Positions 4,166 to 4,650 of a stretch of DNA of 4,650 bases are shown piece after piece. Origin of the DNA: a virus (lineage: Duplodnaviria; Heunggongvirae; Uroviricota; Caudoviricetes); the IMG/VR virus record IMGVR_UViG_2698536571_000005. One strand, given 5' to 3'. Numbering within the stretch: position 1 is the stretch's first letter; each line of letters opens with the position of its first letter. The notes beneath the pieces are model-generated. The model was not told the DNA's origin and ran no database searches. It worked only from the letters and a program-made list of their open reading frames with translations. The translations under genes and the position numbers were made by a program.

Positions 4166-4561
4166 TTAATCATCATTAATATCTTTCATATTCAATTTGC
4201 AATTTTCGTAGGTCACTCCCGACTCGCCATTAACATTAACTCCAGCTCTGATATTCCCGTTTTCTTTTACATCTACAAAAAACTGGCCTCTTGGCATCTT
4301 GAACGCAAATGTAAAACCAACAGTATCTGAATCAAAATCATCATCTTTATATATTGGGATCAAAAATGTCATCGTCGCTGGTGATGCATTGTTTGCAAAA
4401 TCAAATACACCTATACTTTTGCCGAATTCATAAGAAGCTTTTCTCAATATAATCGCACCGCTGGCAGAAGGGGATGGGCACGATATCCTCAGTTGTCTGA
4501 ATCCATCTGTATCCAAGTCAACGTCATTATCTGCAGATGTTTTAACGGGTAATGACTCCAA
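4166..4561 (-). CDS. Hypothetical protein in AT-rich DNA; no family recognised
   Basis: 396-nt ORF in DNA that is about 27% GC by hand count of 4161-4220, where stop codons are frequent, so an open frame of this length suggests real coding. Start is uncertain: the only in-frame start upstream of Met64 is TTG at 4561-4559, inside the right repeat, with no obvious SD; in-frame stops sit just upstream. Confidence 0.35.
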   Translation of the reverse strand: MESLPVKTSADNDVDLDTDGFRQLRISCPSPSASGAIILRKASYEFGKSIGVFDFANNASPATMTFLIPIYKDDDFDSDTVGFTFAFKMPRGQFFVDVKENGNIRAGVNVNGESGVTYENCKLNMKDINDD

Positions 4562-4650
4562 CTTATTGATAGTGTTTTATGTTCAGATAATGCCCGATGA
4601 CTTTGTCATGCAGCTCCACCGATTTTGAGAACGACAGCGACTTCCGTCCC
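4548..4650. repeat. Right arm of the perfect 103-bp inverted repeat; partner is 1-103
   Basis: Hand comparison, base for base. Contains the TTG start of the 131-aa ORF and, reading inward on the minus strand, an open frame ending at TAA 4565-4563. Confidence 0.9.

Follow-up and report, generated by a model that had tools for sequence, protein, structure and literature searches.

Two IS1 copies interrupt the tail and baseplate module of a Mu-like prophage remnant in Shigella sonnei

A Mu-like tail and baseplate module between two identical arms

The window, i.e. the entire stretch of 4,650 nt that was analysed here, carries a Mu-like tail and baseplate module on its minus strand (positions 104-4547), which is bounded by two arms (1-103 and 4548-4650) that together constitute a 103-nt inverted repeat (I1) with 100% complementarity. 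The features to which the text refers are given below; loci L002-L007 are six complete-chromosome loci that contain the window, while L001 and L008 are further loci used for comparison.

1..103 (+): right end of IS1 copy B, inverted; insB codons at 2-85; IRR tip at 103
23..697 (-): baseplate J gene (Mu gp47-like), cut by IS1; Pfam Baseplate_J matched at positions 2-137 of 255 only
104..112 (-): 9-bp target duplication, inner copy, of IS1 copy B; GGGGGCGCA
690..1100 (-): phage GP46 family, 136 aa; Pfam GP46, E=4.5e-33
1106..1665 (-): Mu gp45-like baseplate assembly protein V; a 177-aa PF06890 gene occupies the corresponding place in L002-L007
1643..2731 (-): baseplate hub (Mu gp44/P-like), 362 aa; Pfam GpP-like_1st, Gp44-like_2nd and GpP_4th
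2728..4119 (-): DNA circulation protein (Mu gp43-like), 463 aa; Pfam DNA_circ_N, E=3e-36; annotated in L001 and L008
4138..4160 (-): terminator-like hairpin with a 10-pair stem and a T-run tail (TTTTATAGTG), directly after the stop of the remnant in the next line
4166..4547 (-): remnant of a 160-aa phage gene of family phrog_5586; 126 codons and stop, the 3' four-fifths of the gene
4539..4547 (-): 9-bp target duplication, inner copy, of IS1 copy A; CGTTAAAAC
4548..4650 (-): right end of IS1 copy A (IS1 positions 666-768), holding the 3' end of insB; IRR tip at 4548

The coordinates of the gp45-like gene were mapped through the match between the window and L004. This gene is interrupted by a run of 286 N (1133-1418), and since the missing stretch measures 260 bases in the matching complete genomes the run represents a gap or mask of unequal length rather than a base-for-base replacement. 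The hub gene contains a perfect CCAGCA hexanucleotide repeat (2161-2183, 3.8 copies) which encodes alternating Leu and Val residues and whose copy number is variable in S. sonnei: with the window as reference, length differences of 0, -6 or -12 nt occur, resulting in products of 358, 360 or 362 aa. No RNA family reached the gathering thresholds in an Rfam search.

At the left end of the module, the 224-aa ORF at 23..697 (-) is a hybrid composed of 198 genuine baseplate J codons (104-697) followed by 26 codons and a stop that are read from the antisense strand of IS1 (23-103). The intact baseplate J protein consists of 360 aa in L001, and the 3' part of the gene (Baseplate_J_C, 131 aa) is located beyond IS1 in L002-L007. 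In public databases the hybrid ORF is present as a 'head assembly protein' (Q3YYR0_SHISS, S. sonnei Ss046), a name that is misleading for an ORF whose boundary is artificial.

IS1 right ends and full IS1 copies in S. sonnei chromosomes

Translation of the minus strand across 4559-4649 exactly reproduced the frame that a sequence-only reading had described in the right arm, with 28 sense codons at 4649-4566, a TAA stop at 4565-4563 and, following the single base G 4562, a TTG at 4561-4559; the same frame is present on the plus strand at the left end (codons at 2-85, TAA 86-88, G 89, TTG 90-92). The length of the open run is in itself unremarkable, as the chance of 28 open codons in random sequence is approximately (61/64)^28 = 0.26 by our own arithmetic. 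The 28-aa peptide, however, aligns with the C-terminal end of the Pfam domain DDE_Tnp_IS1 (positions 104-131 of the 131 in the profile) with a score of 45.7 bits, well above the cut-off of 24.1 (E=1e-11), and the frame is therefore real coding sequence.

The 103-nt arm matches annotated IS1A/IS1B transposase genes of Escherichia coli at 100% identity. Of 5,426 complete E. coli genomes, 4,963 contain its sequence, with 71,705 occurrences in all, and the sequence GGTAATGACTCCAACTTATTGAT at the tip of the arm is the IS1 right inverted repeat (IRR). Each arm is accordingly the right end of an IS1 element, comprising the 3' end of insB, which specifies the C-terminus of the InsAB' transposase, and IRR. 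In these terminal 103 nt and in the InsB C-terminus that they encode no difference from IS1 was found. IS1 measures 768 bp (PMC12428005), and no other insertion sequence has expanded as much in S. sonnei (PMC7373316).

The window shows just the last 103 nt of each IS1 copy, and the full elements were therefore read in matching genomes and not in the source record of the window. These genomes were reached through the 224-aa hybrid ORF, which is encoded on 26 contigs read; six of these, from complete chromosomes, were fetched as loci L002-L007. The source names of the window-matching genomes are those of S. sonnei, including Ss046; the matching accessions also include HE616528.1, which we take to be strain 53G. 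When aligned with L004 and L006, the reverse complement of the window displayed no mismatches outside the N run. The two junctions are absent from complete E. coli genomes, in which the best matches cover only 103-4547, and an exact scan for the right junction in the contigs of species-representative genomes returned no match, which is probably explained by the absence of an S. sonnei genome among the species representatives.

In L002-L007 each arm continues into IS1, with eleven of the twelve copies being 768 bp in length, and PF03400 genes are called in these loci. The remaining copy (L004, 10595-11361) is 767 bp long, its insA product being called as 99 aa instead of 91 aa, and this could reflect a 1-nt deletion or a sequencing error. 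In L005, where both IS1 copies are mutually identical, the left inverted repeat (IRL), insA and the A6C slippery site TTAAAAAAC (TTAAAAAACTC) could be read, and insB runs without interruption through 174 codons before its TAA is reached. The length of 768 bp, IRL, IRR, insA, the A6C site and a 9-bp duplication were thus all found in the matching genomes. It had been proposed from the window that the 3' end of an outside gene could lie in the arm on either side, and the flanking sequence confirms this for both sides, the gene being insB: a long ORF of the IS1 transposase family enters the repeat in frame beyond each edge, and the stop codon immediately outside both edges that would have spoken against an entering gene is absent.

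In all six loci CGTTAAAAC flanks one IS1 copy on both sides and GGGGGCGCA flanks the other. Furthermore, when both IS1 copies and one copy of each duplication were removed from L005, the remaining sequence aligned over 9,600 nt with the intact prophage of E. coli FDAARGOS_944, with 99 mismatches and without a gap where the two elements had been excised. These data bear on the possibility that the 4.4-kb segment and its inverted arms form a mobile or invertible unit, being either a composite transposon of the Tn9 type or a segment flipped by recombination. Pairs of IS1 can form composite transposons, and it is true that two identical, inverted copies flank the segment here; however, each copy possesses its own matching 9-bp duplication on both sides rather than there being a single duplication around the whole unit, while the segment and both of its outer flanks are collinear with the intact prophage, so that the cargo is not foreign to its surroundings and in fact consists of baseplate genes that are cut at both ends. 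An inversion would have swapped the duplications, and all six complete genomes have the segment in its uninverted orientation. Both readings, the composite transposon and the inversion, were rejected on the basis of the target duplications and the prophage collinearity, and we attach a very small probability to them.

Because each copy has its own duplications and because the prophage is collinear, the arrangement is ascribed to two separate, in-place insertions. The Mu-like prophage remnant of S. sonnei was thus hit twice by IS1, independently and with the two copies oppositely oriented, once after codon 34 of a small gene for a predicted accessory lipoprotein and once in the baseplate J gene. 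All S. sonnei genomes examined, Ss046 among them, carry the insertions.

With regard to the wider locus, the prophage is a remnant, with smpB located approximately 5 kb past the last tail genes in L002-L006, and an IS3-family element (HTH_Tnp_1 and rve) abuts the tail sheath gene in all six loci. The flanks of the prophage were examined in L002-L007 across 1-960 and 16600-17200; the distal flank of L007 differs and carries an integrase, and rearrangement has therefore occurred among strains.

The truncated phrog_5586 gene and the TAA-G-TTG junction

The TTG at 4561-4559, which occupies IS1 positions 755-757 of this copy, is the mechanical start of a 131-aa ORF (4166..4561, minus strand) which matches phrog_5586 only from profile position 32 onwards (positions 32-161 of 161, E=2.4e-76). 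Its first five codons, L/M-E-S-L-P (4561-4547), come from IS1, except that the flanking base 4547 supplies the last position of the fifth; after L-E-S-L-P the genuine gene sequence resumes at VKTSADN, and from residue 6 onwards the ORF is identical in amino acid sequence to an E. coli protein. The intact form of this protein consists of 160 aa (WP_000594909.1, E. coli FDAARGOS_944), and the start of the intact gene is a GTG located 34 codons further upstream and preceded by a GGAG Shine-Dalgarno (SD) sequence, which in L005 is 8 nt before the GTG. The intact protein begins with VIKPFLMTVAILTSC... (VIKPFLMTVAILTSCCAQ...), in which a short signal peptide and a lipobox (L-T-S-C) are predicted. 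As IS1 is inserted after codon 34, the gene's own GTG, SD and predicted lipoprotein signal peptide are now beyond IS1, on its far side, where the 5' piece runs into IRL and ends as ...SNVKTVMLPTY and a stop.

The interrupted gene is located between the tape-measure and DNA-circulation genes (window 4124-4547; L001 7030-7512; L008 4001-4489) and is AT-rich, with a GC content of 0.37-0.40 versus 0.53-0.59 next door. Some related E. coli prophages cease to resemble the window at 4123, before the interrupted gene is reached. Phage vB_EcoM-720R4 harbours a 49.7%-identical homologue at the equivalent location, flanked by Mup42 and Mup43. Sequence searches with the 160-aa protein returned no match in Pfam, NCBIfam, PADLOC or PDB, its only matches being to PHROGs (phrog_5586, a function-unknown family) and the one phage homologue, and the AlphaFold model obtained for the remnant from a single sequence was of low quality (mean pLDDT 51.2, pTM 0.44). 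Judging from its sequence, the interrupted gene looks like an accessory, moron-type gene for a predicted lipoprotein: in common with phage morons it is AT-rich, has its own SD and terminator, is inserted between structural genes and coincides with a break in similarity in some prophages, although it differs from them in that no promoter of its own was identified here and in that the gene is inactivated in S. sonnei. As a guess, it may belong to the superinfection-exclusion type of moron. Draft assemblies of S. flexneri contain this small gene as well, in the form of partial products (92-151 aa) on contigs approximately 5.2 kb long, a hint that in that species contigs break separately within or beside the gene, perhaps at another IS insertion.

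The layout of a stop followed after one nucleotide by a start-like codon had been taken to resemble translational coupling, by which the TTG would acquire a mechanism for initiation in spite of having no SD. The TTG is indeed without an SD, the upstream sequence being ...ACATAAAACACTATCAATAAG, and the arrangement shares with termination-reinitiation coupling, as it operates in many bacterial operons, a stop and a start-like codon 1 nt apart and no SD. If coupling were real, ribosomes that terminate at the insB TAA would reinitiate at the TTG and produce a 131-aa protein from the truncated gene, with the predicted peptide ESLPVKTSADNDVDLDTDGFR. The geometry would allow this, as the TTG is in the downstream frame and that frame is intact for 131 codons, its sequence from residue 6 matching the E. 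coli protein without a change; however, such identity is uninformative with regard to selection, given that S. sonnei arose no more than a few centuries ago (PMC7373316).

Several observations argue against coupling. The TAA-G-TTG sequence is 14-18 nt from the IS1 tip, within the terminal inverted repeat, and is identical across tens of thousands of IS1 copies; it recurs at every IS1 right end, and the octamer TAAGTTGG is also present in IRL (...ATCAGTAAGTTGGCAGCATCACC, as read in L005), so that the motif is not specific to this junction. The copy in the left arm precedes a frame of only 11 codons, in which TTG 90-92 opens LESLPAPPCGM and a stop. The octamer is probably retained through the transposase-binding role of the repeat and not through translation. 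Moreover, the TTG is not the start of a real gene, since the phrog_5586 match begins only at position 32 and the intact gene starts at its GTG, and a product initiated at the TTG would be without the signal peptide and the lipobox cysteine that would provide the lipid anchor. Gene callers pass over the 131-aa ORF on complete chromosomes, and a promoter scan found no sigma-70-like promoter in 4050-4650.

Translation of the upstream frame is also expected to be scarce. The insB gene gives no separate protein, as InsAB' requires a -1 frameshift that occurs on approximately 2% of transcripts, and the IS1 promoter PIS1 is extremely weak and repressed by InsA (PMC12428005); few ribosomes would therefore be expected to reach the insB TAA. 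The present case differs from coupled operons in that the upstream frame is presumably hardly translated, in that the downstream ORF is 5'-truncated and has its real start elsewhere, and in that the motif belongs to a transposase-binding repeat which recurs at every IS1 end. The proposal that coupling supplies the start of the 131-aa ORF is therefore not upheld: the motif is a fixed IS1 repeat and the true GTG is elsewhere, and coupling is in our view very unlikely. That a trace of a signal-less, cytoplasmic 131-aa fragment is nonetheless made via reinitiation at the TTG after termination of InsAB' is rated slightly lower still; if true, genes that IS1 truncates in frame could obtain a weak, portable start from its right end.

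The TTG is accordingly no more than the first start-like codon after an in-frame stop inside IS1, with the gene remnant happening to lie in frame. The mechanically called ORF extends back to the IS1 TTG because the remnant is in frame with it, and such an in-frame continuation is expected in approximately one in six insertions (two orientations and three frames; our own arithmetic). The 131-aa ORF is most likely a dead pseudogene fragment, and we infer that it is without meaningful expression.

The window as an assembly-edge view

Draft S. sonnei assemblies include whole contigs of 4,551-4,666 nt that represent the same interval with approximately 50-110 nt of IS1 at each end. Gene calls for the 131-aa ORF are restricted to contigs shorter than 5 kb: of its 21 index blocks, 20 belong to contigs of 2-5 kb and one is below 2 kb. 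For the hybrid 224-aa ORF, 186 of the 226 index blocks belong to contigs of 2-5 kb. The window corresponds to one such short-read contig, its two ends collapsed within IS1, and it is because of this collapse that only 103 nt of each IS1 copy are visible and that the ends resemble a neat inverted repeat.

Employing the combined evidence of the arms, the full elements and the intact prophage, we conclude with a probability of roughly 0.96 that the arms are IS1 ends derived from two independent insertions, that the 131-aa ORF is the remnant of a predicted lipoprotein gene and that the window presents a contig-edge view of this locus. The splitting of prophage genes by IS1 in Shigella is an already known phenomenon; in agreement with other IS-generated Shigella pseudogenes, IS1 is located here within prophage coding sequences, two genes are split and nothing notable differs.

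The case illustrates that draft assemblies of IS-rich genomes such as those of Shigella end inside insertion sequences, and that the resulting edges can pass for inverted repeats, for partial genes or for junctions of a stop and a start. When ORFs are called mechanically on such edges, the outcome is hybrid ORFs that are misnamed in databases, here a 131-aa "uncharacterised protein" and a 224-aa "head assembly protein", while recognition of the IS1 ends makes any special translation mechanism unnecessary.
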